Assembly: GCA_963840455.1 (NCBI GenBank)
Contig: CAWIYV010000007.1
Location: 394,456 to 458,455, forward strand
DNA from: Nitrospirota bacterium
GTDB taxonomy: Bacteria > Nitrospirota > UBA9217
DNA: 64,000 nt
Reading direction: 5' to 3'
The number at the start of each line of letters is the position of its first letter. Position 1 is the stretch's first letter. Made by a program: the position numbers and the translations under genes. The notes below the pieces were generated by a model that did not search any database, was not told where the DNA came from, and was given only the letters and a program-made list of their open reading frames with translations. This document shows positions 9,604 to 47,914 of this stretch, piece after piece.

Positions 9604-9673
9604 CTCCCCATATTCCTTGACTTAATTATCTGTATTCGCTACACTGTCGGAGCTTTTTCAGCAGTCATATCAT

Positions 9674-10675
9674 ATGAGACAAAATGTTACCGGCACGGTC
9701 CTGGTCACCGGCGGCACCGGCTTCGTGGGGAGCCACCTTGTCGAGCTGCTGATCGCTAGGGGCTATGATGTCGTCTGCCTCGTGAGGGACCTTCAGAGGC
9801 TCCGGTGGCTCCAGGGGCTGAAGGTGCGGTTGGTCAGGGGAGACTGTCAGGATCCGACGTCGCTGACAGCAGCGGTCAAGAATGCCGCGATGGTCTTTCA
9901 CCTGGCCGGTCTCACCAAGGCATTTCGCGCACGCGATTATTACGAGGTGAACCATATCGGCACCCGGAACCTCCTCGAGGCGTGCGCGCGTCACAATCCC
10001 GGGCTCAGGAAGTTCATCCTCGTTTCCAGTCTTGCCGCCGCCGGTCCCGCCGCTGGCGGCAGGCCGATACGGGATACCGACCTTCCGCGGCCGGTATCGG
10101 ATTACGGGAGGAGCAAGCTTCTCGGAGAGGCGGAGACGCTCCGCTTCCGGGAACGGTTCCCCATCGTGACCCTCCGGCCCGCTGCGGTATACGGCCCGCG
10201 CGATACCGATGTGTTCGAGCTGTTCAAGTGGGCATCGAAGGGCCTTATTCTCGACATTCGCGGCGGGGAGCGCTTCCTGAACTGGTGCTATGTAGATGAC
10301 CTGGCCGAAGCCCTGCTCCTTGCAGGCGAGCGCAGGGTTCCGAGCGGCAGCAGGTATTTCATCGCCGAGGACCGGGTGTATTCAACGACGGAATTCCACC
10401 AGGCGCTGCAGCGGACCGGCGGCGTGAACGCGAAGGTCATCAAGGTGCCGGTCTGGATGGGATATGCCATCGGAGCGCTGTCCGAGACGGCCGGCGCCCT
10501 CCGGGGCAAGGCAACGATCATGAGCCGACAGAAGGTCCGGGAGGCGGTCCAGCAATACTGGACCTGCGACCTGGGCAGGACCCGTGACGATCTTGGCTTC
10601 AGCGCAGGTGTTCCGCTGGAGCAGGGGCTCGAACGCACCTGGAAGTGGTATCGGGATAATAATTGGGTCCGTTGA
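9674..10675 (+). CDS. cerR: NAD(P)-dependent epimerase/dehydratase-family SDR; candidate bacterial ceramide reductase CerR (3-ketodihydrosphingosine / oxidised-ceramide reductase)
   Basis: Rossmann GGTGFVGSHLVELL and extended-SDR architecture. Sits immediately 5-prime of spt and bcerS homologues, the published cerR-spt-bcerS synteny. Confidence 0.6.
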   Translation: MRQNVTGTVLVTGGTGFVGSHLVELLIARGYDVVCLVRDLQRLRWLQGLKVRLVRGDCQDPTSLTAAVKNAAMVFHLAGLTKAFRARDYYEVNHIGTRNLLEACARHNPGLRKFILVSSLAAAGPAAGGRPIRDTDLPRPVSDYGRSKLLGEAETLRFRERFPIVTLRPAAVYGPRDTDVFELFKWASKGLILDIRGGERFLNWCYVDDLAEALLLAGERRVPSGSRYFIAEDRVYSTTEFHQALQRTGGVNAKVIKVPVWMGYAIGALSETAGALRGKATIMSRQKVREAVQQYWTCDLGRTRDDLGFSAGVPLEQGLERTWKWYRDNNWVR

Positions 10676-10719
10676 TCAGGTCTGCGAAATTCATTATGGG
10701 ATGAGAGGGAGGCAGTACA

Positions 10720-11901
10720 TTGGATCTTTTTGAAAAGTGCACGAAGTACACCGCGGCAAAAGAGGTGATGGCCGCCGGATTCTATCCATACTTCCGCGTG
10801 GTGGAATCGGAGCAGAACCCCGAGGTGATCGTGGAAGGCCATAAGATGATCATGCTCGGGTCGAACAACTACCTCGGCCTTACGAGCCACCCCAAGGTGA
10901 AGGAAGCGGCCATCGAGGCGGTGAAGAAGTACGGGAGCGGGTGCGCGGGCTCACGCTTCCTGAACGGCACCCTCGATATCCATGTGCAGCTCGAGAAGAA
11001 GTTGGCCAAGTTCTTCCGGAAGGAGAACGCTCTGACCTTCTCCACCGGTTACCAGACGAACCTCGGCATCATCTCGTCCATTGCCGGAAAGGACGACGTG
11101 GTCGTCATCGACAAGCTGGACCACGCCAGCATCATCGACGCCTGCCGGCTGTCCTATGCCGATGTCAAGAAGTTCAAGCATAACGACATGAAGAGCCTCG
11201 AGTTCATCCTCTCGGAGTGCGGGGACCGGGGCAAGCTCGTCGTCATCGACGGCGTGTACAGCATGGAAGGGGACATCGCGCCGCTGCCGGAGATCGTCAA
11301 GGTCTGCAAGAAGTACGGAGCGCGTATCATGGTCGATGACGCCCACGGCGTCGGCGTGCTAGGGAAAACGGGACGCGGCACGGCGGAGCACTTCGGGCTC
11401 GAGAAGGACGTGGACATCATCATGGGCACCTACAGCAAGTCCATGGCCTCCATCGGCGGGTTCGTGGCTGCGAGCGAGGACGTGATCCATTACATCAAAC
11501 ATACCTCACGGCCGCTCATCTTCTCGGCGAGCCCGCCGCCGGCCTCGGTGGCGTCGGTCATCGCCGCCCTCGACGTCATCGACCAGGAGCCGGAGCGCAG
11601 GGAACGACTCTGGCACAATACGAACAAGATGATGAAGGCTTTCAAGAACATGGGGTATGACACCGGGACCTCGGAGACGCCCATCATCCCACTGCTCATG
11701 GGCGAGATGGAGCGGGCGTTCATGATGTGGAAGATCCTGAGCGACGAGGGCGTGTTCGTGAACCCGGTGGCACCTCCGGCAACTCCACCGGGACGCTGCC
11801 TCATCCGCACGAGCTACATGGCGACCCATACCGATGAACAACTCGACCGGGTGCTCGTGATCATGGAGCAGGCAGGGAAAAAACTGGGTGTGATACAATA
11901 A
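10720..11901 (+). CDS. spt: Serine palmitoyltransferase / alpha-oxoamine synthase family PLP enzyme (Spt; BioF/KBL-like)
   Basis: Class-II aminotransferase fold with PLP-lysine region GTYSKSMASIGGF, GSNNYLGL motif, 393 aa. Confidence 0.75.
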   Translation: MDLFEKCTKYTAAKEVMAAGFYPYFRVVESEQNPEVIVEGHKMIMLGSNNYLGLTSHPKVKEAAIEAVKKYGSGCAGSRFLNGTLDIHVQLEKKLAKFFRKENALTFSTGYQTNLGIISSIAGKDDVVVIDKLDHASIIDACRLSYADVKKFKHNDMKSLEFILSECGDRGKLVVIDGVYSMEGDIAPLPEIVKVCKKYGARIMVDDAHGVGVLGKTGRGTAEHFGLEKDVDIIMGTYSKSMASIGGFVAASEDVIHYIKHTSRPLIFSASPPPASVASVIAALDVIDQEPERRERLWHNTNKMMKAFKNMGYDTGTSETPIIPLLMGEMERAFMMWKILSDEGVFVNPVAPPATPPGRCLIRTSYMATHTDEQLDRVLVIMEQAGKKLGVIQ

Positions 11902-12039
11902 CCGGGATCGTGAGCATGAAAAGGCGGAAAAGCGTTTTGAAGGGATACAGGATAGAATTGTGATACTACCCCTCCTGTTGATCCTGATGATCCTGTGAAC
12001 CTTTCAATGGCTCCCTAGTATTCCGACTGCTAAACTACC

Positions 12040-13158
12040 ATGCAGATCGAACTTGTTTCCGATAAAAAGGGCCTCGAACAGTTCATTCGGTTCCCCTGGG
12101 CAGTGTATGAGGGGAACTCGAACTGGGTCCCGCCGCTCATCAGCGAGATGGAGTTCATCCTTGGCGAGAAGAACCCGTTCTTCCATCACGCCGAGGCCGC
12201 CTACTTCCTTGCGAAAGATGGGGAAAACGTCGTTGGCCGCATCGCCGCAATCATCGACCGCAATCACATCAATACGCACAACGAACAGGCGGGATTCTTC
12301 GGGTTCTACGAAGCCCTTCCCGATCCTGCCGTCGCCTGCGGCCTCCTGGACGCGGCAGCTGCATGGCTAAAAGAGCGCGAAATCGAGGTCATGCGCGGGC
12401 CCATAAACCCGTCCACGAACGATGAATGCGGATTCCTGCTCGAAGGGTTCGATTCCCCGCCGATGATCATGATGACCTATACGCCGCGGTACTATCTCGA
12501 CCACATGGAGCGCTGCGGCATGGAAAAGGCCAGGGACCTCTATGCGTATATCTCGATCATCCCGGAGGTCTCGGCCGGCGGCAGGCTCGAACGGCTCTCC
12601 TCCGGGGTGCATGCGCGGGTGCCCGGCCTCACCGTGCGGCCGGCGAACATGAAGCAGTTCCATCGGGAACTGGAATCGGTCAAGGAGATCTACAACTCGG
12701 CATGGAGCCACAACTGGGGGTTCGTCCCCATGACCGAAGAGGAGATCGAGTCCATGGCGAAGCGGCTCAAGCCGCTCATCGTCCCGGAGCTGCTGATCAT
12801 GGTCGAGGTGAACGGCGCCCCCGCAGCGTTCTTCATGGCCCTGCCGGACTACAACCAGGTCCTTCGCCGGGTCAACGGGCGGCTGGGGCCCATGGGCATC
12901 CTGAAGTTCCTGTGGTACTCCCGGAAGATCTCCGACATCCGCGTGCTCACCATGGGGGTGAAAGAGGAATACCGCAAGAAAGGCATCGAGGGCCTGCTGT
13001 ACCTCGAGTCCTTCAAGGCAGCCATGAAGAAAGGCTATGAACGGGCAGAGATGTCCTGGGTGCTGGAGGACAACCTCCTCATGCAGCGCGGCTGCGAGCT
13101 CATGGGCGGGAAACTGTACAAGAAGTACCGCATCTACGAGAAGAAGATCCGAGCATGA
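12040..13158 (+). CDS. bcerS: GNAT-fold N-acyltransferase; candidate bacterial ceramide synthase bCerS
   Basis: 372-aa soluble acyltransferase with no close housekeeping counterpart, immediately after spt. Matches the synteny reported for bacterial ceramide synthesis. Confidence 0.55.
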   Translation: MQIELVSDKKGLEQFIRFPWAVYEGNSNWVPPLISEMEFILGEKNPFFHHAEAAYFLAKDGENVVGRIAAIIDRNHINTHNEQAGFFGFYEALPDPAVACGLLDAAAAWLKEREIEVMRGPINPSTNDECGFLLEGFDSPPMIMMTYTPRYYLDHMERCGMEKARDLYAYISIIPEVSAGGRLERLSSGVHARVPGLTVRPANMKQFHRELESVKEIYNSAWSHNWGFVPMTEEEIESMAKRLKPLIVPELLIMVEVNGAPAAFFMALPDYNQVLRRVNGRLGPMGILKFLWYSRKISDIRVLTMGVKEEYRKKGIEGLLYLESFKAAMKKGYERAEMSWVLEDNLLMQRGCELMGGKLYKKYRIYEKKIRA

Positions 13159-13742
13159 AGCATATCGGACGCAAGCTCTACCACCTCCTCGGCGGGCTCG
13201 CCTTGCTTACGCTCTATTACCTGCTGGGCAGGCGGAACGCGCTGGTCTGCTACGGTCTCCTCTTCCTGGTCGTTCTTGCCGTCGATATCACCCGCCTTCG
13301 CGTGCCCGCGTTCAACCAGTTCATCCAGACGCGGCTTAGCAGCTTCATCCGGAAGAACGAGGCAAACAAAATCACCGGCACGGCGCCCTATGTGCTCGGC
13401 ATCGGGTTGACGCTGTTGTTCTACCGTACCGATATCGCCACGGCTGCCATCTGTTTTCTCGCGTTCGGTGATGTGGCGGCGACGACCGTTGGGGAGCGGT
13501 ATGGACGGACGAAGATCGTAGGTGATAAAAGCCTGGAAGGGACCCTGGCATTTGCGGTCATTGCTGTTGCATCCGGGCTGGCGCTCCCGCTGGTCGGTGT
13601 CCACCTTGCGCCCGGCCTCATCGCGGCAGGATCGTTCGTGGCTGCAGGTGTGGAACTGGTCCCCCTGCGCGTTAACGATAACCTCGTGATCCCCGTGGTA
13701 TCAGGCGGGGCCATGGAACTGATCGCGCGGCTTGGCGGCTGA
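13155..13742 (+). CDS. CTP-transferase-1-family (dolichol/phytol/DAG-kinase-like) integral membrane lipid kinase; candidate sphingolipid head-group enzyme
   Basis: ATGA overlap with bcerS. 5-6 TM. GDVAATTVGERYGRTKI...KSLEGT motif characteristic of CTP-dependent polyprenol/DAG kinases and CdsA relatives. Confidence 0.45.
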   Translation: MKHIGRKLYHLLGGLALLTLYYLLGRRNALVCYGLLFLVVLAVDITRLRVPAFNQFIQTRLSSFIRKNEANKITGTAPYVLGIGLTLLFYRTDIATAAICFLAFGDVAATTVGERYGRTKIVGDKSLEGTLAFAVIAVASGLALPLVGVHLAPGLIAAGSFVAAGVELVPLRVNDNLVIPVVSGGAMELIARLGG

Positions 13743-14606
13743 ACATGAGGACCATGCGTAAAGCGGTGGGGCAAGGTACACGGTGAGCACGGTCAGCGCG
13801 ATGCCTGCCAGGACATCGACGACGTAGTGGTAGCGAAGGTACACGGTGGACAGGATGAGCCCGGTCACCGCCGGCAGGAGCAGTGCGGTCAGGACCCGTT
13901 CCCGGAACTTCCTTGCGTAGTAGAGCGTCATCAGGGCGACGGCGGTATGGCCGCTCGGGAACGCATCGGTCTTGGTGTTCTCGAGGGCGTTCAACGTTTC
14001 CTGGATGGATGTGACAAGCGGTCCGGCAGCCAGGTCCCGCGTCTGCAGATGCGCAAGGGTGAAGCGGGGGCCAACAGCAGGGACCAAAAGGTAGCCGACG
14101 TAGGACAGGTAGAAACAGAGGATAATACCGAAGATCGCTTCGTCGAAGGCGGTCTCGTTCTTTTTCAGGAAGAGCACGGCGCCCAGGACGATGGCCATGG
14201 GATAATAGCTGATGTAGGCGAACTGCAGCACCGTGGTCAGCAGGGGATGGACGAACCGTTCGAGCAGGACCGTGGGGTGATGTCCCCCGAAGAGCCGGAA
14301 GTCGGCCCTGATGAGCAGGTCGTCGAAGGTGCAGGGCCAGACCCAGGGAATGATATCTCCCATGCTGTTGAACAGGACCGGGACGATCAGGACCGGAAGG
14401 AACGAATGGACGGTGCGCGCCCAGGTCGGCGCCTTCGGGAACGAGGCGTACCGGCTGATGAGGACCAGGAAAACGATAAGGGCGGCAAAGCGGGCAACAA
14501 GCCGCCCCGCGTGGGGCAGCCGGGGCGACGCGGCGAGCGTGACCGCGGCCAGGAGCGCGATGAAGGCGATCGAGAGCAGGTCGACAGGCTTGAGGGTCCT
14601 GCGCAT
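13701..14606 (-). CDS. PAP2-superfamily membrane protein with sphingomyelin-synthase/IPC-synthase-like motifs; candidate phosphosphingolipid synthase
   Basis: PSGHTAVAL and RYHYVVDVLAG motifs (SMS D3/D4-like), about 6 TM. Convergent with and overlapping the 3-prime end of the kinase-like gene by 42 bp. The alternative-frame ORF 13672..14646 was rejected. Confidence 0.55.
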   Translation of the reverse strand: MRRTLKPVDLLSIAFIALLAAVTLAASPRLPHAGRLVARFAALIVFLVLISRYASFPKAPTWARTVHSFLPVLIVPVLFNSMGDIIPWVWPCTFDDLLIRADFRLFGGHHPTVLLERFVHPLLTTVLQFAYISYYPMAIVLGAVLFLKKNETAFDEAIFGIILCFYLSYVGYLLVPAVGPRFTLAHLQTRDLAAGPLVTSIQETLNALENTKTDAFPSGHTAVALMTLYYARKFRERVLTALLLPAVTGLILSTVYLRYHYVVDVLAGIALTVLTVYLAPPLYAWSSCSAAKPRDQFHGPA

Positions 14607-14664
14607 GACCTCTTATACAATACCTCCCCGCTAATTGCAAGAGCATCTATGTTATACTCGAACT

Positions 14665-15987
14665 ATGCATAAGAGCGCCCGATCAGCCCTGCTCGTTCTT
14701 GCGGTCCTGCTGCCGTCTATCAGTGCATTTGACGATGGCCATGCAGCGGAAAAGCTCTCCCTGACGCAATGCCTCGAAACGGCGCTCAAGAACCAGCCGG
14801 CGATCAGGGCGGCCCAGGAGAACGTTCGTGCCGGTCAAGGCCGGGAGACCCAGGCGGCATCGCCCTATTTCCCGCAGCTCACGGCAAGTACCGGTTATTC
14901 CGAGAGCCATGCCCCCCTGGGAGGTGCGTTCGGAGACAGTACAACGAAGAGCTATACCACGAGCCTGTCGTTGAGCCAGACGCTCTATGACTTCGGGAAA
15001 ACCGGAAATGCCTATGACGCAGCGAAATTGGGTACGCTGTCGCTGGAGCGGGATGCGGAACGGATCAGCCAGGAGGTCGTGCTGAATGTCAAACAGTCCT
15101 ATTACGCGCTGCTGGCGGCCAAGAAGCTCGTCGAGGTAGCCCAGAAAACGATCGAGCAGACCGAAAGCCATCTGAAACAGGCCGAGGCGTTCTTTCGCGC
15201 GGGATCAAAACCGAGATACGACGTGACGCGGGCCGAGGTGGAAGTGAACAACGCGAATCTCGGCCTGATCAACGCAAAGAACGGTGTGCGCATAAGGACG
15301 ATCGCCCTGAACAACGCCATGGGGATCGATCCGGGGAGGGCCACGGAGATCGTGGAGGAGCTTCCCTCCGTCCCGCTTCTTCCGTCGCTGGACAAGGCGC
15401 AGGCGGACGCCCTTCAGAACCGTCCGGACATGAAACGGATGGAGGCTGACATCGAGGCGGCCCGGGCCCGGCTGACGGCGGAGCGGTCGAACCACCTTCC
15501 GACGCTCTCGGCGAACGCCGCCTACAACTGGGCGAACGGCACTACCGAGATGGGACCGTTCATGGGGACGATGTTCAAGGGAGACGTCCAGAACAGCTGG
15601 AACGCCGGGATCATGCTGACCCTGCCCCTGTTCCAGGGAGGCCTGACGGCGGGCCGGGTCGCCGAGGCGCGGGCGAATCTGCTTGCGCTTGAAGCCCAGC
15701 GGGACGCGATGAAGCAGTCGATCCTCCTGGAGGTGAACCAGGCCTTTGCCGATCTCGAGAGCGCGGCCGCGCGGGTGGAGGTCATGGAGAAGACCCTGCA
15801 AAAAGCGCGGGAAAATCTTGATATCGCCCAGGGCAGATATAAAGCAGGGGTCGGTCCCTATATTGAAGTGACAGACGCCCAGCTTTCCTCGGTCAATTCA
15901 GAAACAGACCATATCAAGGCGCTGTATGATTATCACCTTGCGATCGCGCAGCTCCAGAAAGCAATGGGCATCAAAAGCTATGAATAA
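14665..15987 (+). CDS. TolC-family outer membrane efflux protein
   Basis: Start taken at MHKSARSALLVLAVLLPSISA (signal peptide). Two OEP repeats. Confidence 0.8.
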   Translation: MHKSARSALLVLAVLLPSISAFDDGHAAEKLSLTQCLETALKNQPAIRAAQENVRAGQGRETQAASPYFPQLTASTGYSESHAPLGGAFGDSTTKSYTTSLSLSQTLYDFGKTGNAYDAAKLGTLSLERDAERISQEVVLNVKQSYYALLAAKKLVEVAQKTIEQTESHLKQAEAFFRAGSKPRYDVTRAEVEVNNANLGLINAKNGVRIRTIALNNAMGIDPGRATEIVEELPSVPLLPSLDKAQADALQNRPDMKRMEADIEAARARLTAERSNHLPTLSANAAYNWANGTTEMGPFMGTMFKGDVQNSWNAGIMLTLPLFQGGLTAGRVAEARANLLALEAQRDAMKQSILLEVNQAFADLESAAARVEVMEKTLQKARENLDIAQGRYKAGVGPYIEVTDAQLSSVNSETDHIKALYDYHLAIAQLQKAMGIKSYE

Positions 15988-16033
15988 CACGAGGCCGTAG
16001 AAGGTCGTTGACGGAGAGAGGGGAGGAAAAGCA

Positions 16034-16492
16034 ATGCCGCGAGTAGAATCAGTGTTCAGGGTCAAACTCCCTGTCAGGGCAGTGTGGTCCTTTATGTCGG
16101 ACCGCAACGAAGTGGGCTGTCTGTTCCCGGGATGCAAGGGTGTCAAGATCTTAGATGATCTGGACGCGATATGGAAGGTGCGCGTGACCTTCGGGCCCTT
16201 TGCCCGGCTCGTGGAGCTGAAGACCCACACGACGGCGTTCAAGGAGTTTGAGCAGCTTTCCTGGATCGGCAGCGGCGGAGACATCCACATGTCAGGTGAC
16301 GTCATGCTGAAAAAGGTCTCGGACGACGAGACCGAGGTGGTCTATCATCTGGAAGGGCATGTGACCGGGCCGTTCGCCATGCTGCAGGACATTGTGGTGG
16401 CGGAGAAGCTGCGGGAGGTGAAGAAGAAGTTCATCAAGAACATCAAGGACGAGCTCGAGTGGCAGCTGGATGAGGGCGTGGAAAAGAAATGA
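16034..16492 (+). CDS. SRPBCC (CoxG/polyketide-cyclase-like) small ligand-binding protein
   Basis: 152 aa, VWSFMSD...KFIKN pattern typical of CoxG-like SRPBCC. Confidence 0.5.
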   Translation: MPRVESVFRVKLPVRAVWSFMSDRNEVGCLFPGCKGVKILDDLDAIWKVRVTFGPFARLVELKTHTTAFKEFEQLSWIGSGGDIHMSGDVMLKKVSDDETEVVYHLEGHVTGPFAMLQDIVVAEKLREVKKKFIKNIKDELEWQLDEGVEKK

Positions 16493-17592
16493 CGCTGCTC
16501 AGGAACAAGAAGGTGCTGATGGCTGCCGCGGTGGTGATCGTCATTGTGCTCGCCGTCGTAATGACCGGCAAGAAACCGGTGCCGGTCAAGGTCATTGAGA
16601 TCAAGCGGGGAGAATTGCGCGTCATCGTGAATGCGACGACCACGTCGACGGTAAAGTCGGAATACGAGGTCACGCTTTCCGCGCAGCGCACGGGAAGGGT
16701 CGTCACGCTGCCGGTGCGGGAAGGGGACCGGGTCAAGGCCGGAGACCTGATCGCACGGCTTGATCTGACCGAAGAATCCGTCCAGTCCGAGAGCGTTCTG
16801 GCCCAGAGCAGGGCAACATACGGGGAAACGGAGAAGAACCTCAAGCGCTCGGAAGATCTTTTTGCGAACGGGATGATCGCCCAGCAGGACCTCGACAGCG
16901 CACGCAGAGCGTTCGAGGTGGCACGGTCCCAGTATGAAGCCTCCCGGGACGATGTCAAGGTCAAGAAGGACTATTCCGTCATCAGGACGCCCTATGGCGG
17001 TGTGGTGTCGAAGAAATACACGGAGGTAGGCGAGCTGCTCCTGCCCGGGAAGCAGATCGTGACCGTCGTGGACCCTGACCGTATCTATGTGCTGGCGACC
17101 ATCGATGAGGTGGATGTGGGACGGCTTCGTCTGGGGCAGCCGGTGGCCATCAGCATTGACGCGTTCCCGGGCGAGAAGTTCAACGGCACCATCAGGCGGA
17201 TATCGCCCATCGTAAGCGGCGGAAAGCTGGAGACCCGGACCGCGGACGTGTGGATCTATTTCACGGCGAAGGACGCCAGGATCAAGCCGGGGATGTCCGC
17301 CGACGTCGAGATCCTCATCACGACGCTCACGGGGGTCCTGTCCGCTCCATCACAGGCCATCGTGGAGCGCGACGGCAAGAAGCAGGTCTATGTCGCTGAA
17401 GGAACGAACCTTGCCCCGGGTGCCACTACCCGTGTGCGTCTGCAGCCTGTGGAGATCGGCGAAAGCAACTGGGTGAGTACGGAGATCAGGAACGGCCTGA
17501 AGGCCGGGGAGTTCGTTGTTACCACGCCCGAAGTGGAAGGACTGAAGGATGGCGTCAGAATCGTCGTCGAGAAAGAGAAAAATTCCCGTTAG
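16489..17592 (+). CDS. Efflux periplasmic adaptor (HlyD/MacA-type membrane fusion protein)
   Basis: N-terminal TM anchor, biotinyl-lipoyl-like hairpin, coiled coil, beta-barrel domains. ATGA overlap with the upstream gene. Confidence 0.8.
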   Translation: MTLLRNKKVLMAAAVVIVIVLAVVMTGKKPVPVKVIEIKRGELRVIVNATTTSTVKSEYEVTLSAQRTGRVVTLPVREGDRVKAGDLIARLDLTEESVQSESVLAQSRATYGETEKNLKRSEDLFANGMIAQQDLDSARRAFEVARSQYEASRDDVKVKKDYSVIRTPYGGVVSKKYTEVGELLLPGKQIVTVVDPDRIYVLATIDEVDVGRLRLGQPVAISIDAFPGEKFNGTIRRISPIVSGGKLETRTADVWIYFTAKDARIKPGMSADVEILITTLTGVLSAPSQAIVERDGKKQVYVAEGTNLAPGATTRVRLQPVEIGESNWVSTEIRNGLKAGEFVVTTPEVEGLKDGVRIVVEKEKNSR

Positions 17593-17604
17593 CATACCCC
17601 TGCC

Positions 17605-18278
<674 letters not shown>

Positions 18279-18282
<4 letters not shown>

Positions 18283-19487
18283 ACTTCATCGAGATATTCA
18301 GGGTCGCGCTGGAGGCCATCCTTTCGAACAAGGTGCGGTCCGGCTTAACCATGCTTGGCGTGATCATCGGGGTGCTCGCGGTGATCTTGCTGGTCTCGAT
18401 CGGCGAAGGGGCACAGGTCTACATCACCAAGGAACTCACGGGCATGGGAACGAACCTCCTCATGATCACACCGGGGAAAACGAGCACGAGCGGCGGCTTC
18501 CATCCTCCCTCAGCAGGAACAGTGCGCAAACTGACCTATGATGATTCGCAGGCGCTCAAGCGCCGCGCCTGGCTCCTGAGCGATGCAGTACCGCTTGTGT
18601 TCGGCACCGGACGGATAAAATACCAGAACATGGGCCGCGACACCATGATCATCGGAACAACGCCGGAGTTCCAGAGCATCCGGCACCTCTTCGTCGACAC
18701 CGGCAGCTATGTGACCCAGGGGGATGTGGATTCCAAGGCGAAGATCGTGGTGCTCGGCACGAAGGTGAAGGAGGAGCTGTTCGGCCAGGAGAATGCGCTC
18801 GGCAAGGCCGTGACACTTTCCGACGCCCGCTACCGCGTCGTCGGGGTGATGCAAAAGCGGGGGACGAGCCTTGGCATGGACCTCGATGATATCGTGTTCA
18901 TACCCGTCACGAGCGGACAGGAGCTGTTCGACACCGATGGGCTGTTCGAGATCATCGCCTCGACACCCCGGGCAGAGGACGTGGACCGGGCCATCAGCCA
19001 GATCAAGGAGGTCCTGATTAAACGGCACGCGCACAAGGAGGATTTCACCATCCAGACCCAGGGTGCCATGCTCTCGACCATGAATACCATTTTGAACATC
19101 CTGACCGCGGTGCTCGGGGGCATTGCCGGAATCTCGCTGCTCGTGGGCGGGATCGGGATCATGAACATCATGCTGGTCTCTGTCCGCGAACGCACGCGGG
19201 AGATCGGCATCAGGAAGGCCATCGGTGCCCGGAACAGCGATATCATGGCTCAGTTCATGATCGAGGCGATCACGCTGTCCGGCGTCGGCGGGGTCATTGG
19301 CATCGTGCTCGGTGTGGGCATCGCGCTCCTGATCCCGATGTTCGTCACGGTGCTCCCGACGAGCATATCGCTCTGGTCCATTGTGATGGCCTTCACCTTC
19401 TCCATGGCGGTCGGTGTGTTCTTTGGCGTGTACCCGGCCCGCAAGGCATCGCTTCAGGACCCTATCTCCGCACTACGCTACGAATAG
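18279..19487 (+). CDS. ABC transporter permease, FtsX/MacB-like
   Basis: Start ATG overlaps the upstream TGA. N-terminal TM, large periplasmic domain, three C-terminal TM (FtsX fold). The longer track ORF from 18222 is an artefact. Confidence 0.85.
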
Positions 19488-28888: not shown

Positions 28889-29485
28889 ACGTACAGATAA
28901 TTATTATAGGATCTTCTCCCTCTTATGTGGGTAACATTGTCCGCTACCTAATAAGAATCGTGTTTTCTGCATATCCCCTTCGCATCCTGAATGAATTTCC
29001 TGACCCGTCTACGGCCACGTCCGCTCGCCCGCGCAAACTCGGCCTGCGGCCTCAGACATGCGCGTTCGCCCTGCGGGACGCTTCCTTAGGCCAAGACGGG
29101 TGCCCAGAAAATTCATAGGGACGCTCCGGGGACATGCGGGATTTGGGTATAGGCCTGTGCATCTGCCTTTCCAAAAGCTCCTGCATCCCGTGAACAGGTC
29201 CGTGCACAAGCATGCGCAGGCGGTCACGGCAGGTGCCATCACCAAGCCAGGCAGACACGGCTGAGCCCGTTTTGACGGGCGAGGGGAAGTGCTGCTTTAC
29301 CCAATGAATATTGTTATCAGTACCAGTCCTGCATGCCTGCGCGGACCTGTGAACCGGGGTGCAGAAAAAATGGCATCGTGAATTTTATCTTTTTTGACGA
29401 CTGTAAATAGTTGCATGCTGCACAATTGCTTTGGAAATGAGTTTTTTGATATAGTGCATGATCGTTCGTGCTTGCATATAAATCT

Positions 29486-31642
29486 ATGACAAACGTCCGT
29501 CTTGAAGACATCGTCGAACGGCTCCAGAGCAACAATCCGGAGGCCGATGTGGACCTGGTGAGGCGCGCCTACATCTTTTCGGCAAAGGCGCACCAGGGAC
29601 AGATGCGGCTGTCCGGCGAGTCCTACCTCATCCATCCCCTCGACGTGGCCAAGATCCTTTCGGAGCTTCGGATGGACCCGGCTACCGTTGCGGCTGGGAT
29701 CCTTCACGACACCATCGAGGACACCACCTCGACCCTCGAGGAGATCCGCTCGCTCTTCGGCGACGAAGTGGCCAAGCTCGTGGACGGCATGACGAAGCTT
29801 TCGCGCATGGAGCTCCAGAGCCGCGAGGAGCGTGAGGCGCAGAACTTCCGCAAGATGATCGTGGCCATGTCCAACGACATCCGAGTCATCCTGATCAAGC
29901 TTGCCGACCGGCTCCACAACATGCGCACGCTGACATTCCTCCCTCCTGAAAAGCAGAAGCGCACCGCCCAGGAGACCCTGGACATCTACGCGCCCCTCGC
30001 GAACCGACTGGGGATCCAGAAGTTCAAGACCGAGCTCGAGGACCTCTCGTTCCGGTATCTGCACCCCGAGGAGTACCGTGACATCGCGGACAAGGTCGCC
30101 CAGAAGCGCATGGAGCGTCAGGCCTACATCGATGATCTGATCGAGATCGTGAAACGCCAGCTCGCGGAGCACGGCTACAAGGGCGATGTGAAGGGACGGC
30201 CCAAACATTTCTACGGCATCTGGCAGAAGATGCAGAAGCAGGGCATCTCCTTCGACGACGTCTACGACCTCATCGCGGTGAGGATCATCACGGACAGCAA
30301 GGTCAACTGCTACGCCATCCTCGGTCTGATCCACTCCCTCTGGACGCCGGTCCCGGGCCGTTTCAAGGATTTCATCGGCGTTCCGAAGTCGAACTTGTAC
30401 CAGTCGCTCCACACAACGGTCATCGGCCCCAAGGGCGAGCGCGTGGAGTTCCAGATCCGCACCGAGGAAATGCACCGCCTCGCCGAGGAAGGCATCGCCG
30501 CGCACTGGCGGTACAAGGAAAAGTCCGCCATGAGCCAGAGCGAGGAGCAGCAGTTCGCCTGGCTCCGCCAGCTCCTGGAGTGGCAGAGCGACCTGACCGA
30601 CGCCAAAGAGTTCATGGACACGGTCAAGGGAGACCTCTTCCCGGACATGGTCTATATCTTCACCCCCAAGGGCGACGTGCGGGAGCTGCCGCAGGGCTCC
30701 ACGCCGGTGGACTTCGCCTATGCCGTGCACACCGATATAGGCCACCAGTGCGTGGGCGCCAAGATCAACGGGAAGATCGTGCCGCTCAAACACGTGCTCC
30801 GGAACGGCGACCGGATCGAGATCATCACGCAGACCGGCCACACACCGAGCCGCGACTGGCTTAAGTTCGTCAAGACCTCCAAGGCCCGCACAAGGATCAA
30901 GGCGTGGGTCAAGACCGAAGAACGCCGGAGGAGCATCCTGCTCGGCAAGGAACTGCTCGAAAAGGACCTGCGCAAGCACGACCTGAATCCCTCGAAGGTC
31001 TTCAAGTCCGACGACATCCATCGCGTGGCCCACGAGCTGTCCAGCAATACGGTCGAGGACATGCTCGCGGCCATCGGCTACGGCAAGATGTCGGCGCACA
31101 TGGTGGCGAACAAGCTGGCGCCTGACCGGCCCCATGTGGAGCCCCTGCCGAAGAAGCCGCACAAGAAGCCGGCTCAGGAGCGAAAAGGCGCCGGCACCGG
31201 CATGAACATCAGCGGCATGGACAGCATGCTGTTCCATCTTTCCAAGTGCTGCAATCCCGTGCCCGGAGACCGCGTGGTGGGGTTCATCACGCGCGGACGG
31301 GGCATTTCCATTCATACGACGGACTGCCCGAACGTCTCCGACCTCGCGCTCGACCGCGAGCGGGTCGTCGAGGTGTCCTGGGGCGATTTTCAGCCCACGG
31401 CCCACGAGGTAAAGATCTCCGTGAGGACTGCGGACAAACCGGGCCTGCTGGCGAACGTCTCGTCGTCCATCAGCGCGGCTGAAGCGAACATCACCCACGC
31501 CGAGGTCACCACCGACAAGGACAAACAAGCCACCCTCAACTTCACCATCGACATCAAGGACGTGGAGCACCTGAACCGCATCATCAAGTCGATCGAGGGC
31601 GTCGACGGGGTAATGGACGTCCGGCGGGTGAAGGCGGGATGA
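29486..31642 (+). CDS. Bifunctional (p)ppGpp synthetase/hydrolase RelA/SpoT family
   Basis: HD domain HDTIEDT, synthetase domain, TGS and C-terminal ACT. The antisense 821-aa ORF was rejected. Confidence 0.9.
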   Translation: MTNVRLEDIVERLQSNNPEADVDLVRRAYIFSAKAHQGQMRLSGESYLIHPLDVAKILSELRMDPATVAAGILHDTIEDTTSTLEEIRSLFGDEVAKLVDGMTKLSRMELQSREEREAQNFRKMIVAMSNDIRVILIKLADRLHNMRTLTFLPPEKQKRTAQETLDIYAPLANRLGIQKFKTELEDLSFRYLHPEEYRDIADKVAQKRMERQAYIDDLIEIVKRQLAEHGYKGDVKGRPKHFYGIWQKMQKQGISFDDVYDLIAVRIITDSKVNCYAILGLIHSLWTPVPGRFKDFIGVPKSNLYQSLHTTVIGPKGERVEFQIRTEEMHRLAEEGIAAHWRYKEKSAMSQSEEQQFAWLRQLLEWQSDLTDAKEFMDTVKGDLFPDMVYIFTPKGDVRELPQGSTPVDFAYAVHTDIGHQCVGAKINGKIVPLKHVLRNGDRIEIITQTGHTPSRDWLKFVKTSKARTRIKAWVKTEERRRSILLGKELLEKDLRKHDLNPSKVFKSDDIHRVAHELSSNTVEDMLAAIGYGKMSAHMVANKLAPDRPHVEPLPKKPHKKPAQERKGAGTGMNISGMDSMLFHLSKCCNPVPGDRVVGFITRGRGISIHTTDCPNVSDLALDRERVVEVSWGDFQPTAHEVKISVRTADKPGLLANVSSSISAAEANITHAEVTTDKDKQATLNFTIDIKDVEHLNRIIKSIEGVDGVMDVRRVKAG

Positions 31643-31644
31643 GA

Positions 31645-31673
31645 GACAGAAGACAGAAGACAGAAGACAGGAG
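31645..31673. repeat. Tandem 9-bp repeat (AGAAGACAG, about 3 copies) in the relA-ridA intergenic region
   Basis: Read directly. Confidence 0.7.
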
Positions 31674-31705
31674 TCAGAATTCAGGAGACAGGAGAACGGA
31701 AAATT

Positions 31706-32086
31706 GTGAAAAAGATAATTAGAACCACTGACGCGCCGCAGGCCATCGGGCCCTATTCCCAAGCAGTCGAGGCGAATGGGTTCGTATTCGTGTCAGGGCA
31801 GATCCCGCTCGACCCGAAGACCGGCTATCTCGCCCCAGGGGGCATTCGGGAGCAGATGAAGCAGGTGATGGAGAACGGGAAGGCGATCCTCGCGGCCGCG
31901 GGATGCGGCATGGGCCAGGTGGTCAAGACGACGATCTATCTCAGGAACATCGGTGACTTCGCCGCGGTGAACGAGGTCTATGGCAGTTACTTCCCGGCAG
32001 AACCTCCCGCCCGGGCGACTGTCGAGGTCTCGCGGCTTCCCAAGGAATCAGAGGTCGAGATCGACCTCATCGCGGTGAAAGCATGA
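31706..32086 (+). CDS. ridA: RidA/YjgF family reactive-intermediate deaminase
   Basis: GTG start. TDAPQAIGPYSQAV...KTTIYL signature. Confidence 0.85.
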   Translation: MKKIIRTTDAPQAIGPYSQAVEANGFVFVSGQIPLDPKTGYLAPGGIREQMKQVMENGKAILAAAGCGMGQVVKTTIYLRNIGDFAAVNEVYGSYFPAEPPARATVEVSRLPKESEVEIDLIAVKA

Positions 32087-44622: not shown

Positions 44623-45936
44623 TCACACCTTGATATGCAGCATCGGCAGTCCCAGCCGCTGCCGCTTGTTCTCCCCCTTGAACAGATCAGCCTTCCGCAC
44701 CGGCACATCGCCCCGTTCTCCCTCGTGCTGCGCCTGCAGCTTCGTCGGCAGGCTGGCCCCGTGCTGGACCGCGTGCTTGCCGTACTTCCGGGAGAGCTCG
44801 TCGATGCTCTCGTAGATCTTCGCCATCTTCTCGATCTTCGTTGTGTCCTCGAAGAGCCCGTACTGGACGCCGCTCTCCGCCACCAGGCCGGACAGGACGA
44901 CGCCGGTCTGGCGGTAGGGGGTATGGGCCAAGTACAGGCCACGGAACCCCTCGCGCAGCATTGTGAACAGTTCGGACGGGAATGCCGTGGGGCGGCTCAA
45001 CTTCAGTTCAACGCCGGTGCTCCGGTAGTCCTGCTGCCGGAGGAAGATGATCACCCTTTTGGCAACCAGGTGGTAGCGCCGTGCTTTGATGCAGGCGTTC
45101 TCCAAGTTCTTGGAGAGCTGTGCAAAGACAAAGGTCTCGTCCGTAGAGGGAGGGGTGAAGGTCTTTGCCTTGCTGATGGACTGGTAGGCGCTCTTGGTCT
45201 CCGTCGTGACCGGGTAGACGCTCCTGCCGTTCAGTTCGTGCCAGATCTCCTGGTAGGGTTTGGAAAGGTACCTTGTCACGAACGCCTCGTCCTTCAGTGC
45301 GAACTCCAGGGCGGTCCTGATGCCGTGCTTGCCCAGGTAAGCCGCTGTGTTCGGGCCGATACCCCAGACCTTCTCCACGGGCAGCTTCCCGAGGAAGAGA
45401 TGGATGTCCCTGCCGGGGATCAGCGTGATGCCGTGGGGCTTCTTGTGCTTCGATCCGATCTTTGCCAGGACCTTCGAGAGGCTTACCCCGACGGATACTG
45501 ACAGCCCCAGCTCCTGCTCGATGGCTTCCTGCATCTTCAGTGCAATCGTCCCGTAGGGGCCGTGAAATGTCCTCCTGAGGCCGGTCAGGTCCACGAAGGC
45601 TTCGTCGATGGAGTATTCCTCAACGTCCGGCGAAAAGCGTCTTAATATTTCGAACATGCGCACCGAAAAGAGGCTGTAGGTCTCGTAGTCCGACGGGAGG
45701 ATGACGGCGTCGGGGCAGAGCTTTTTCACGTCCGAGAGGCGCACTCCGCGCTGCACGCCGCGCGCCTTGGCCTCGTAGCTCGCCGCGGCCACGATGCCGC
45801 GCTCCTTGCCGGTGATGACCGGCCTGCCGCGCAGCTCCGGGTGGATGGCCTGCTCGCAGGAGGCGAAGAAGGCGTCGGCGTCCAGGTGGAGGATGGCGCG
45901 GGGCCAGGAGGAGATGATGAGGGGTTGGTTGGACAT
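44623..45936 (-). CDS. Y-family DNA polymerase, UmuC-like (catalytic residues intact)
   Basis: HLDADAFFASCE and SIDEAFVDLTG catalytic motifs. N-terminal block resembles UmuC more than DinB. 437 aa. Confidence 0.75.
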   Translation of the reverse strand: MSNQPLIISSWPRAILHLDADAFFASCEQAIHPELRGRPVITGKERGIVAAASYEAKARGVQRGVRLSDVKKLCPDAVILPSDYETYSLFSVRMFEILRRFSPDVEEYSIDEAFVDLTGLRRTFHGPYGTIALKMQEAIEQELGLSVSVGVSLSKVLAKIGSKHKKPHGITLIPGRDIHLFLGKLPVEKVWGIGPNTAAYLGKHGIRTALEFALKDEAFVTRYLSKPYQEIWHELNGRSVYPVTTETKSAYQSISKAKTFTPPSTDETFVFAQLSKNLENACIKARRYHLVAKRVIIFLRQQDYRSTGVELKLSRPTAFPSELFTMLREGFRGLYLAHTPYRQTGVVLSGLVAESGVQYGLFEDTTKIEKMAKIYESIDELSRKYGKHAVQHGASLPTKLQAQHEGERGDVPVRKADLFKGENKRQRLGLPMLHIKV

Positions 45937-46000
45937 AAGGTAAAACCCGACACGGAGACGGGGGACGCGGATTTACGCGGATCAATACAAGGGACAGGGA

Positions 46001-46051
46001 ACACGCGCCTGACGCGCTGCCTTTGGCGCGTCGCTGTGGACCCGCCTTGTT
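46001..46051. repeat. GC-rich hairpin-containing ~50-bp repeat, copy A (GACGCGC-loop-GCGCGTC ... GCTGTGGACCCGCCTTGTT)
   Basis: Direct repeat of copy B (about 85% identity over the ~30-bp core). Confidence 0.65.
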
Positions 46052-46093
46052 AGAATTCTCATTGGGTTTTATGTAGTCCCAGTGATACAGGAC

Positions 46094-46573
46094 CTACAAC
46101 GGGACAACGCCGCGTGATGTGATATTGTATTTGTGAATTGATTTTATGCTGTGCTTGTTGAGATCGTGATCAACTTGAATTTCTAATGTCGTCCCAGTCC
46201 AACGGCACGAGAGGTAGATCTGGCCTTTATAGTTCAATTCGATTGGAGATAGGAGCTTCTTTTTTGATAGATCAAGGATGTTAACTCTAGATTTGCATCC
46301 ATCATCTGCGCAATAAGGCAGTGCAATCAGATTATGTTCCAGGTTTAGAAGGGGCTGACCCGCGGCATCATTCTTACCCAAAGTGATTAATGTGCTTCCA
46401 ATTTTGATTTGATAGACTGTATCCCGACCTTCATAAACACCCGTCCAGTACATTACGATCTTGTCTCCGCTCGGAAGTACTTCTTGAGTGGTCCATGTTC
46501 GATCAGCGGCATAAGATAATGCCACTACGTTAGCGAATACAAGAACCGTCAGAATAGTTTGTTTAATCATATT
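46094..46573 (-). CDS. Hypothetical secreted protein (AT-rich gene)
   Basis: Start at MNMIKQ, signal peptide. Visibly lower GC than the flanks. Confidence 0.45.
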   Translation of the reverse strand, partial: NMIKQTILTVLVFANVVALSYAADRTWTTQEVLPSGDKIVMYWTGVYEGRDTVYQIKIGSTLITLGKNDAAGQPLLNLEHNLIALPYCADDGCKSRVNILDLSKKKLLSPIELNYKGQIYLSCRWTGTTLEIQVDHDLNKHSIKSIHKYNITSRGVVPL

Positions 46574-46590
46574 CATCCACCTTGGGACTA

Positions 46591-46641
46591 ACACGCCGGT
46601 CACGCGCCGCCCCTTGGCGCGACGCTGTGGACCGGCTTGTT
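46591..46641. repeat. GC-rich ~50-bp repeat, copy B
   Basis: TTGGCGCGACGCTGTGGACCGGCTTGTT core shared with copy A. Confidence 0.65.
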
Positions 46642-46657
46642 GTCGTATTTCTTTCGG

Positions 46658-47086
46658 TTATGGCGTGATAGAGTACTTGCCGTTTACATCAGAGGCGATA
46701 ACACCATCAGGCGAATGAACCCAAAATAGGTTCAGATGTAAATATTTATTTTCCGCATCGATCCAAGCATATCCTAAGTCCCAATGATGCATATTGGTCT
46801 TTATATCTTCAATCGAATAATAATAGCCTTTTTGATTGCGATAAGACCAGTCACGCCCTTTGCCAGATAAGCTGATTTTAAAGTGAAGGGTTTCTTTTGG
46901 GAAGGTACCTTCAGGTGTTATCAATTGCCAATGAAGTTTTTGAGTAGTTACGTTGAGTAGGTATCCGCCATCGGGTTGAGGTGATATGGAATAATCTTTA
47001 TTAATTGTACTTCCTAAGCCGAACACGGAAAGATACACAACGAATAACACGGCAAGGCCAATCAGCAAATGTTTTCGCTTTACCAT
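46658..47086 (-). CDS. Hypothetical secreted/membrane-anchored protein (AT-rich gene)
   Basis: N-terminal TM/signal MVKRKHLLIGLAVLFVVYLSVFGLG. Confidence 0.45.
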   Translation of the reverse strand: MVKRKHLLIGLAVLFVVYLSVFGLGSTINKDYSISPQPDGGYLLNVTTQKLHWQLITPEGTFPKETLHFKISLSGKGRDWSYRNQKGYYYSIEDIKTNMHHWDLGYAWIDAENKYLHLNLFWVHSPDGVIASDVNGKYSITP

Positions 47087-47164
47087 AGCTCTCCTGCAAG
47101 ATTTCGAATGATAAATCCGACGCTAAAGTTTTTTACCAGATAACAAGATGTTATCGGAACGGAA

Positions 47165-47290
47165 ACCGTCATCTACATATATATACAACTATCTATCGGT
47201 ATATGGATCCATCTACCAGTAGATGACGAACTGCCATATACCGGTAGATGGTTTTTCAGTTGTTAATGTCATTCGGAATCATCTACCTGT
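47165..47290. repeat. Iteron-like array: five copies of CATCTAC/GTAGATG in ~120 bp, including a perfect CATCTAC-CA-GTAGATG palindrome (47210..47225)
   Basis: Read directly. Located in an AT-rich intergenic region 5-prime of the minus-strand gene at 47086. Confidence 0.6.
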
Positions 47291-47682
47291 ATATGCTTTT
47301 CCAAAGGTGTACCGCCAATCTTTCCGTATTTCACAAACCATAGTTTCTTCTCCGGGTCCCACCACCCGCCCGCTGCTTTGGCATGCAATCGTGACGGCAT
47401 GTCGAAAGCGTCGATGTGCAGAGGCACAAGCGTGTCGACCGCAAATCGTGGTGGAGGAGGGGTCCAGTCAGTCCTTTCCACGATCAACTCGACAGTCTTC
47501 AACCGCTGCCGCGACTCCTTGTCATACTTGAAACGAACGCAGAGCAGGGCATCGCCGTACTGTTCCACGAGCCTTTTGGTCCCAGGCTGCCCCGGTTTGA
47601 GAATCAATCGCGTTTTCATTGGACGTTTTGAACAATTCCAGCTAAGCGCTCTTTTGATGGTGAGAGGTATACCAGTCGACAA
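47269..47682 (-). CDS. Hypothetical protein with a C-terminal GGWWDPEKKLWFV motif
   Basis: 137 aa, AT-rich. No confident family call. Confidence 0.35.
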   Translation of the reverse strand: MSTGIPLTIKRALSWNCSKRPMKTRLILKPGQPGTKRLVEQYGDALLCVRFKYDKESRQRLKTVELIVERTDWTPPPPRFAVDTLVPLHIDAFDMPSRLHAKAAGGWWDPEKKLWFVKYGKIGGTPLEKHIQVDDSE

Positions 47683-47914
47683 GCTGGCGTATCATTTTTT
47701 GATACGAGGTGTGATGTTTCTTGGCCTCTTTCTTAAAGAACTCCACACTCGACTTTTTCAGGGCGATAGTCACCTTGATATTGTCTTCTTTAAGAACAAG
47801 TTGCTCAGGCGGCGGAAGAAAGTCATCGATCACTTTCAGTTTTCCAATCGGCTCATCCGAATATTTAATTTTGCTCTTCATATATTTTCTTTCCTTTCCT
47901 CCAATATCCCGCAC
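47642..47914 (-). CDS. brnA: BrnA-type antitoxin (CopG/RHH-like)
   Basis: C-terminal KKSSVEFFKKEAKKHHTSYQKMIRQLVDWY matches the BrnA pattern. Overlaps the upstream brnT. Confidence 0.6.
   Translation of the reverse strand: MRDIGGKERKYMKSKIKYSDEPIGKLKVIDDFLPPPEQLVLKEDNIKVTIALKKSSVEFFKKEAKKHHTSYQKMIRQLVDWYTSHHQKSA

Follow-up and report, generated by a model that had tools for sequence, protein, structure and literature searches.

The locus examined here consists of five genes at positions 9674–14606 of a 64,000-nucleotide stretch of DNA (contig CAWIYV010000007.1, hereafter the window) from an uncultured Nitrospirota bacterium of the lineage UBA9217. Four of the genes are read in one direction and encode an extended short-chain dehydrogenase/reductase (SDR) of the CerR type, a predicted serine palmitoyltransferase (Spt), a GNAT protein of the bacterial ceramide synthase type (bCerS or CerS) and a small membrane protein that we call G4; the fifth, for a PAP2 membrane protein, converges on them (Table 1). 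We propose that the locus is a four-gene phosphosphingolipid module in which is embedded a CTP-dependent lipid kinase, unrelated to the module by descent, that would re-phosphorylate diacylglycerol (DAG), and for this reading, predicted from sequence, we consider the chances to be about even. The novelty lies in the attached transferase and the embedded kinase, the three-gene ceramide core being already known.

The locus and its genes

All five open reading frames (ORFs) lie exactly where the initial annotation of this DNA had drawn them, and they are not chance frames, as each has hundreds to thousands of homologues and their order recurs in dozens of independent contigs. Longer ORFs over the locus in other frames have a GC content at third codon positions (GC3) of 0.43–0.62, as for example 13672–14646 on the minus strand at 0.43, and are high-GC artefacts. 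The closest genomes are those of uncultured Nitrospirota, the best locus (L001) matching at 79–97% identity per protein.

Two junctions had drawn attention initially, the convergent overlap of G4 with PAP2 and the translational coupling of the GNAT gene to G4, and they differ in how widely they are kept. The overlap, 42 nucleotides (nt) in the window, recurs at 15–36 nt (alignment level) in 38 of 40 related loci. The coupling is present in the sequence, where a single ATGA (13155–13158) contains both the stop of GNAT and the start of G4, but is conserved only in the window and close relatives, the GNAT–G4 distance in orthologous clusters, measured on tblastn alignments, varying between 3 and 225 nt.

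Table 1. Genes and other features of the five-gene locus and its borders (window coordinates).
Feature	Position	Strand	Remarks
Candidate sigma-70-type promoter, TTGACT-17-TACACT	9617–9645	+	Consensus scan; in the 70-nt CDF–SDR gap
SDR (CerR-type extended SDR)	9674–10675	+	333 aa, GC3 0.77
Spt (predicted serine palmitoyltransferase)	10720–11901	+	393 aa, TTG start, GC3 0.85
GNAT (bCerS/CerS, YghO-type)	12040–13158	+	372 aa, GC3 0.83
G4 (CdsA-superfamily polytopic membrane protein, Dgk1/Sec59/VTE5-type)	13155–13742	+	195 aa, GC3 0.75
G4/PAP2 convergent 3' overlap	13701–13742	.	42 nt
PAP2 (Aur1-like PAP2_3 membrane protein)	13701–14606	-	301 aa, GC3 0.83
Divergent intergenic region between PAP2 and the TolC operon	14607–14664	.	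58 nt

A known ceramide core

The gene at 10720–11901 is a predicted bacterial serine palmitoyltransferase. Its best match among the NCBIfam models is SerpalmtaseCFB (NF047600) at 580 bits, against 437 for gly_Cac_T_rel, 410 for KBL and 404 for BioF; the next Spt model, NF047599, gives 446 bits (cut-off 500), 134 bits under the SerpalmtaseCFB score. Among PDB sequences the enzyme of Sphingobacterium multivorum (3a2b) is best at 434.6 bits, KBL reaching about 270 and BioF about 235. Spt models and structures thus outscore both of the families with which, as the initial annotation had recognized, the gene might have grouped instead. They outscore ALAS and CqsA as well. Relatives share 80–97% identity across Nitrospirota and Desulfuromonadales and 55–62% in other phyla, and their genes mostly adjoin GNAT.

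The GNAT protein matches Acetyltransf_1 of Pfam weakly, and its relatives in annotated clusters were found by tblastn against plasmid and chromid records. In Caulobacter crescentus the ceramide genes are CC_1162 (Spt), CC_1164 (CerR) and CC_1154 (bCerS/CerS), and the head-group genes are those of CpgA, CpgB and CpgC (PMC11324152; PMC11087976). Over 372 of 383 residues the window protein is 40% identical (E 1e-89) to the product of the Roseomonas marmotae gene in the CC_1154 position, which stands after lptF/lptG and before nucleotidyltransferase genes, and it is 33% identical to that of a Sphingomonas parapaucimobilis gene downstream of lptF/lptG. The Roseomonas cluster opens with acp, spt, a hypothetical gene, a DAGK_cat kinase, a CDP-alcohol phosphatidyltransferase and a metallophosphoesterase, and continues with lptF/lptG, the GNAT gene, two nucleotidyltransferases, an acyl-AMP ligase and an epimerase-family SDR; these are the families, in the same order around GNAT, of the Caulobacter map of CC_1168–CC_1152 (PMC11324152). 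Genes of Roseomonas and Sphingomonas served as the CerS and CerR orthologues in our comparisons, their orthology to the Caulobacter genes resting on synteny with that published map. The possibility, left open at first, that the GNAT protein might be unlike bCerS is answered by its 40% full-length identity to a syntenic CerS. GNAT adjoins Spt in Nitrospirota, Desulfuromonadales, Acidobacteriota, Elusimicrobiota, KSB1 and others.

The SDR matches the Epimerase family of Pfam (E 6.4e-39). BLASTP aligns the N-terminal 171 residues with the Roseomonas CerR orthologue (39% identity, E 3e-21), and with the SDR family profile the hhalign match is of full length, both to that protein (E 3.7e-43, 305 columns, 31% identity) and to the Sphingomonas orthologue (E 1.2e-38, 298 columns). 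HpnA, OleD and other extended SDRs also score well, so that the assignment to CerR leans on gene context; in nearly all related loci the SDR gene precedes Spt. The CerR of Caulobacter is reported to be periplasmic (PMC11087976). The window protein has its Rossmann motif, VLVTGGTGFVG, near the start (residues 9–19) and no hydrophobic segment, and the Roseomonas orthologue starts alike. Judged by homology and synteny, which bear out the cerR-spt-bcerS core recognized initially, these three genes are a member of the described bacterial ceramide pathway, a core already published for many phyla (PMC11334938).

An Aur1-like PAP2 protein

Against Pfam the PAP2 protein scores 80 bits with PAP2_3 (cut-off 27), 47 bits with PAP2 and 27.3 bits with PAP2_C (cut-off 27), and its only notable match in NCBIfam, at 41 bits, is NF052609, the phosphoinositol dihydroceramide synthase of Bacteroides. 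PSGH(T) at residues 217–221 and HYVVDVLAG at residues 260–268 are both invariant in 40 homologues, and the sequence contains neither the phosphatase C1 motif KX6RP nor the SRX5HX3D form of C3. In the PDB the top match to the family profile is Aur1 (E 5.8e-5), whose catalytic motifs align with those of the family, and Bacillus subtilis PgpB comes next (E 4e-4). An AlphaFold model (pLDDT 82.5; core confident, low at residues 182–187 and 292–301) has as its best Foldseek match Aur1 again (9vj4_A, E 1.6e-4, TM-scores 0.57/0.60, full length, structural identity 17–18%), followed by 9ivc_A at E 2.9e-3; for PgpB, LpxE and SMSr the E values are 0.13–0.3 (SMSr, 8ijq, 0.19). On this modelled structure Aur1 is closer to the protein than the sphingomyelin synthase (SMS) family is.

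We read the PAP2 protein as a predicted ceramide phospho-head-group transferase that would release diacylglycerol, a chemistry suggested by its family and by the co-inheritance described below. The initial annotation had likened its motifs to those of eukaryotic sphingomyelin and IPC synthases, and PAP2_3 membership, the His/His/Asp motifs, the missing C1 motif and the Aur1 match agree with an Aur1/SMS-type protein rather than a classical phosphatase. We also concur that the head group cannot be inferred from the protein, and the genes adjoining PAP2 in Desulfuromonadales and Acidobacteriota loci give no hint of it.

A CdsA-superfamily protein between the ceramide genes and PAP2

Taken singly, the G4 protein has no match in Pfam, NCBIfam or PDB sequences (phmmer), and Foldseek against the PDB is non-significant. 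Its homologues are variously annotated as dolichol kinase, diacylglycerol/polyprenol kinase family, DAG kinase (CTP) and PlsY, the last of which is wrong. When G4 was tested for the CdsA-superfamily fold, the fold was found. The sequence has RKLYH at residue 6, DVAATTVGERYGRTKIVGDKSLEG at residue 106 and NDN at residue 174, that is, an N-terminal RKxxH, a stretch around a conserved Asp of the form D-x2-A-x3-G-x3-G...K-S-x-E-G and a C-terminal NDN, motifs that from the dolichol-kinase literature we take to be kinase-defining; a set of 110 diverse relatives shows no variation at D106, G129, D175 and N176. Neither the CdsA cytidylyltransferase signature (PS01315 pattern) nor HGG occurs in the sequence. 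CTP_transf_1 matches some homologues weakly: 23 of the 29 close ones tested (best E 0.0011) and 8 of the 110 more distant.

Yeast Dgk1 is a CTP-dependent DAG kinase of the CdsA superfamily in which the conserved Asp is essential, and it shares a motif with phytol and dolichol kinases (PMC2459266), which are among the characterised members of the family (PMC2459266; PMC10849223). By fold and motif G4 is a predicted CTP-dependent lipid kinase of this superfamily, as its first label of CTP-transferase-family lipid kinase homologue had it, and we favour diacylglycerol as its substrate.

The family to which G4 belongs, of about 190–200 residues with a CdsA fold, is large (5277 cluster representatives at E <= 0.001 in a search of representatives) and nearly invisible to existing models, with 8 of 110 members matching CTP_transf_1 at E <= 0.001 and 2 of 110 a CdsA model. 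If its members are CTP-dependent kinases of DAG or other lipids, the family would be a bacterial counterpart of yeast Dgk1. That G4 might be a CpgC-like activating enzyme was rejected, as hhalign showed no relationship (probability 0.4%) to the protein in the CpgC position of the Roseomonas cluster. The longer members of the family were examined for fusions of PlsY to G4, and none came up.

Co-inheritance of PAP2 with the ceramide genes

Two samples of related loci were compared, 80 genome loci retrieved via GNAT and 80 metagenome loci retrieved via G4, the latter from relatives of at least 54% identity. In the window the locus is flanked on one side by an RND pump, an MqnA-like gene and a CDF transporter and on the other by a TolC-SRPBCC-MacA-MacB operon, which lies on the opposite strand to PAP2 and 58 nt from its start. 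Where both flanks of a G4 locus could be read, 62 loci have GNAT-G4-PAP2, 22 are without SDR, Spt, GNAT and PAP2, and none is mixed. The association of PAP2 with the ceramide genes, first noted from position, is therefore one of inheritance: PAP2 is tied to these genes, and they appear to form one inherited unit despite the G4 gene between them, which is strong comparative evidence that the predicted transferase acts on their product.

The 22 loci with G4 alone are arranged as CDF-G4-TolC, or in one case as CDF-G4-SRPBCC, and their junctions are clean in ORF maps, as in L154, where the gaps measure 38 and 17 nt. In a neighbour-joining tree of G4 they fall at at least four places among the five-gene loci, and one of them (L094) is nearer to the window in G4, CDF and TolC (79–82%) than most five-gene loci are. 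The 24 lone copies of G4 have all 19 of 19 conserved residues intact and no stop codon.

Retrieval via GNAT gives the complementary view. G4 is present in 25 of 49 close genome loci, all 25 of them of the Nitrospirota type with the RND-MqnA-CDF...TolC-SRPBCC-MacAB context, and the remaining close loci have SDR-Spt-GNAT-PAP2 without G4 in other contexts. The convergent pairing of GNAT with PAP2 is found in Nitrospirota, in Geobacterales/Desulfuromonadales and in three Acidobacteriota loci. Searches by tblastn of the window and the 80 genome loci for homologues of DgkA, CpgA, CpgB, CpgC, LtaS, AcpR and AasR returned none, bar one AasR-like match (L051); there is thus no DgkA-type match, and no alternative DAG kinase is seen beside the clusters that do without G4.

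G4 is, then, an old companion of the cluster that is neither required by the sphingolipid genes nor dependent on them. The initial annotation had counted it as a step of the phosphosphingolipid route, a view that does not hold in that form, since G4 is intact in 22 loci that lost, or never had, SDR, Spt, GNAT and PAP2, is absent from many PAP2-bearing clusters and has a coupling to GNAT that is not conserved. Ceramide and a donor phospholipid suffice for a PAP2_3 transferase, without a kinase, so that the predicted pathway would be complete in the absence of G4.

More distant relatives of G4 occur in varied settings. The closest relative outside the clade, at 51% identity (L166, 3693–7784), lies in SDR-Spt-G4-PAP2 in an unrelated context with no GNAT between Spt and G4, so that either bCerS lies elsewhere or the cluster handles an un-acylated sphingoid base. 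A relative at 49% identity is found in CDF-SDR-Spt-GNAT-G4-PAP2-MqnA and one at 44% in GNAT-G4-PAP2; at 43% the start of the G4 gene overlaps the stop of PlsY, at 42% (L173) the order is G4-MqnA-TolC-HlyD, and at 34% the gene precedes one for LPG_synthase_TM.

A proposed pathway and its alternatives

In the pathway we propose, Spt would condense serine with a long-chain acyl thioester, the YghO-type GNAT (bCerS) would N-acylate the product, and the CerR-type SDR would reduce the 3-keto group to give dihydroceramide. At its His/His/Asp site the PAP2 protein would then move a phospho-head group, possibly phosphoethanolamine, phosphoglycerol or phosphoinositol, from a glycerophospholipid to the 1-OH of ceramide and release DAG, as family chemistry and co-inheritance suggest. 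In the last and least certain step G4 may re-phosphorylate this diacylglycerol to phosphatidate, a salvage that would aid the transferase reaction without being needed for it and would still be useful where there are no sphingolipid genes. Because G4 persists when the ceramide genes and PAP2 are lost, its probable role is in the salvage of lipids generally and not in making sphingolipids. A DAG kinase fits with Dgk1-type chemistry, with dispensability (other DAG kinases can serve) and with relatives beside glycerolipid genes. There is precedent for a phospholipid-consuming head-group transferase linked to a DAG kinase in mcr-3 with dgkA (PMC7559476); the mcr-3-dgkA and mcr-1-pap2 cassettes resemble the arrangement proposed here in linking a DAG-releasing membrane transferase to such a kinase, by analogy only, as their transferase is of the EptA type, their kinase of the DgkA type and their target lipid A rather than ceramide.

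Several points tell against a salvage kinase beside a four-gene module. The evidence on all five proteins is of sequence and models, and three of them score low against curated models. The 580 bits of Spt are under the equivalog cut-off of NF047600 (640); the NCBIfam Spt models were built for other phyla, and a lineage outside these can score under the cut-off. The PAP2 protein, with a cut-off of 480 for NF052609, falls far short of the characterised Bacteroides enzyme, for which reason it is not to be called an inositol phosphorylceramide (IPC) synthase. The gathering score of CTP_transf_1 is not reached, and the G4 of the window does not match that model even at E 10. The tree of G4 is a neighbour-joining distance tree of a 195-residue protein, and the lone loci were retrieved via G4, so that losses of all five genes are unsampled; the genomes of the lone loci may also hold the four-gene module elsewhere. 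G4 relatives at 44–51% identity lie once more in SDR-Spt-(GNAT)-G4-PAP2 clusters in other contexts; G4 and sphingolipid genes have thus long been associated, which may mean a direct role for G4. Lastly, bacterial sphingolipid clusters contain lipid kinases of two other families, and one of these, CpgB of Caulobacter, is a proven ceramide kinase.

The main rival, and the route implied by the initial annotation, follows from these last points: G4 would be a CTP-dependent ceramide or sphingoid-base kinase that makes ceramide-1-phosphate, either as a precursor or as a second product, beside the PAP2 product. We think this unlikely, though it deserves to be taken seriously. In the window G4 is read in the same direction as SDR-Spt-GNAT and is coupled to GNAT through ATGA, clusters of five genes or of SDR-Spt-G4-PAP2 recur down to 44% identity of G4, and the phosphosphingolipid pathway of Caulobacter begins with a ceramide kinase, CpgB (PMC11324152). 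On a Klebsiella plasmid a DgkA gene directly follows that of a YghO-type GNAT with no PAP2 near. E. coli DgkA phosphorylates ceramide in vitro, as in the classical DAG-kinase assay for ceramide. What argues against it is that G4, with its conserved residues, is kept in 22–24 loci without Spt, GNAT and PAP2, that many PAP2-bearing clusters have no G4, that its coupling to GNAT is not conserved, that its relatives lie beside glycerolipid genes and that, going by the established chemistry of the family, Aur1/SMS-type transferases are not known to use ceramide-1-phosphate. Judged from one window, a functional link can be overstated by gene adjacency and ATGA coupling.

In its furthest form, which we rate as rather improbable, G4 would be a third kind of bacterial sphingolipid kinase, of CdsA fold, CTP-dependent and unrelated to CpgB (DAGK_cat) and DgkA, and would with PAP2 make an undescribed phosphosphingolipid or phospho-sphingoid-base lipid. 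If so, the lipid would be expected in the uncultured Nitrospirota and in the relatives that keep SDR-Spt-G4-PAP2 without a neighbouring GNAT.

Alternatively, G4 could be a housekeeping kinase of polyprenol (undecaprenol-type) or of another lipid with no link to sphingolipids, residing in a conserved chromosomal region with the sphingolipid genes around it. The arrangement CDF-G4-TolC is found where sphingolipid genes are lacking altogether, MqnA-TolC-HlyD genes follow a 42%-identical relative as well, some homologues are annotated as dolichol kinase and the family includes dolichol and phytol kinases (PMC2459266; PMC10849223). We regard this as distinctly improbable, as the position between GNAT and PAP2 and the 3' overlap are kept down to 44–51% identity amid unrelated flanks, which inertia alone hardly explains. 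Very improbable, finally, is that the PAP2 protein is a phosphatase of ceramide-1-phosphate, phosphatidylglycerol phosphate or undecaprenyl diphosphate, or an LpxT-like phosphate transferase, with plain ceramide or ceramide phosphate as the end product, for although the general PAP2 model also matches (47 bits), PgpB is the next PDB match after Aur1 (E 4e-4 vs 5.8e-5) and the score against the characterised Bacteroides synthase model is low, PAP2_3 scores higher at 80 bits, KX6RP and SRX5HX3D are absent while the HYxxDVxxG form is present, and Aur1 is the sole full-length structural match, with E > 0.1 for PgpB, LpxE and SMSr.

Comparison with described systems

The locus shares with the Caulobacter cluster the same three families of ceramide enzymes and the presence of a lipid kinase gene. 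It differs in that no gene for an acyl carrier protein (ACP) or acyl-ACP synthetase was found near it by tblastn with AcpR and AasR (the match in L051 being the one exception among the related loci), and in that no homologue of CpgA, CpgB or CpgC was found at the window locus. Its predicted head-group enzyme is a PAP2_3 transferase rather than a kinase plus CDP-type chemistry, and its kinase would be of the CTP family with a CdsA fold and not of DAGK_cat.

With yeast Aur1, the IPC synthase, and BT_1522, the phosphoinositol dihydroceramide synthase of Bacteroides thetaiotaomicron (PMC8791184; PMC9246714), the PAP2 protein has in common the PAP2_3 family, the PSGH and HYxxD motifs and a predicted chemistry in which phospholipid and ceramide would give phosphosphingolipid and DAG. 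It is distant from both, however, and lies beside spt-bcerS rather than in an inositol-synthesis operon; no inositol genes were seen near it in the window. At the level of fold and motifs, G4 resembles the kinases of DAG (yeast Dgk1), dolichol (Sec59/DOLK) and phytol (VTE5) in its CdsA-like fold, Asp stretch, RKxxH and NDN, whereas it is bacterial and, at 195 residues, much smaller.

An Aur1-like transferase is known in Bacteroides, where it stands within the inositol operon (PMC8791184; PMC9246714), and as of 2022 the Bacteroides enzyme that adds phosphoethanolamine, ethanolamine phosphorylceramide (EPC) synthase, was still to be identified (PMC8791184). In the searchable literature we found no bacterial head-group enzymes described beyond the Bacteroides inositol operon and the Caulobacter Cpg genes, nothing specific on sphingolipid genes of Geobacter or Nitrospirota or on a bacterial ceramide phosphoethanolamine (CPE) or EPC synthase, and no description of an Aur1-like transferase attached to cerR-spt-bcerS or of a CdsA-fold kinase in such a cluster. 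The Aur1-like protein, whose gene adjoins cerR-spt-bcerS in at least three phyla and shares the gains and losses of those genes, is a compact candidate for a head-group enzyme.

A conjugative IncFIB plasmid of Klebsiella michiganensis (L083, NZ_CP106839.1, 2161–8707) provides another comparison. It encodes an acyl-AMP ligase, an epimerase-family SDR, an ACP, an Spt-like protein, a YghO-type GNAT (38%) and DgkA, arranged as aasR-cerR-acp-spt / yghO-like GNAT-dgkA. Like the window it has a GNAT of the same family (37–38% full-length identity) with the gene of a small membrane lipid kinase directly after it, but the kinase is DgkA (PF01219), there is no PAP2 near and ACP and acyl-AMP ligase genes are present. 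E. coli YghO itself has 37% full-length identity to the bCerS family, which suggests, as far as homology goes, a capacity for ceramide-like lipids in some Enterobacteriaceae.

Other features of the window and of related loci

Within the locus, the spacer between Spt and GNAT (11902–12039) is 138 nt long in the window, against about 10–30 nt in many relatives (L003, L013, L042); it contains no ORF and no Rfam match at the gathering threshold. Promoter and terminator scans of the region gave sites not above shuffle expectation, and the promoter at 9617–9645 is a candidate only. The TolC-SRPBCC-MacA-MacB operon, whose SRPBCC protein is CoxG/START-like, occupies 14635–19487 and directly follows G4 in loci without sphingolipid genes (17 nt in L154). 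A plasmid of Rubrobacter radiotolerans (L084, NZ_CP007515.1, 5701–11293) likewise has an SRPBCC gene, at about 3 kb from its spt-GNAT-SDR cluster, and a role for the operon in lipid export is conceivable. In this actinobacterial cluster the Spt-like, GNAT (41%) and SDR genes are followed, in the place of PAP2, by one for an LTA-synthase-family protein, which may be a different phospholipid-consuming head-group transferase.

Elsewhere in the window, an ORF of 821 residues (29297–31762, minus strand) has no Pfam match at E <= 1e-4 and a GC3 of 0.58, and its coding status is uncertain. The stretch 46000–50200 has a GC content of 0.45–0.49 compared with about 0.58–0.60 elsewhere and carries small ORFs without Pfam matches; it begins beyond a DinB-type polymerase gene (44623–45936), includes a LexA-like S24 peptidase (48234–48863), ends at a tRNA-Gly (50052–50127) and may be an integrated island.

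Some related loci hold additional copies. In a Desulfuromonadales metagenome-assembled genome (MAG), a second bCerS-like GNAT (373 residues, starting MAGIEIIAVEGG...DLPWRIY) and a gene of 280 residues lie beyond PAP2 (L032, 10256–12216), and this GNAT, possibly a paralogue, may provide a second acyl specificity. Other MAGs contain two copies of the cluster, L020 and L022 in CAVTRN01 and L014 and L041 in CAVVUN01. Only residues 287–318 of SDR and 243–292 of PAP2 align in L020, which suggests a decaying copy. L014 and L041 each contain the whole RND-to-MacB region, and these two copies, which have diverged, could have come from strain mixing or from duplication.

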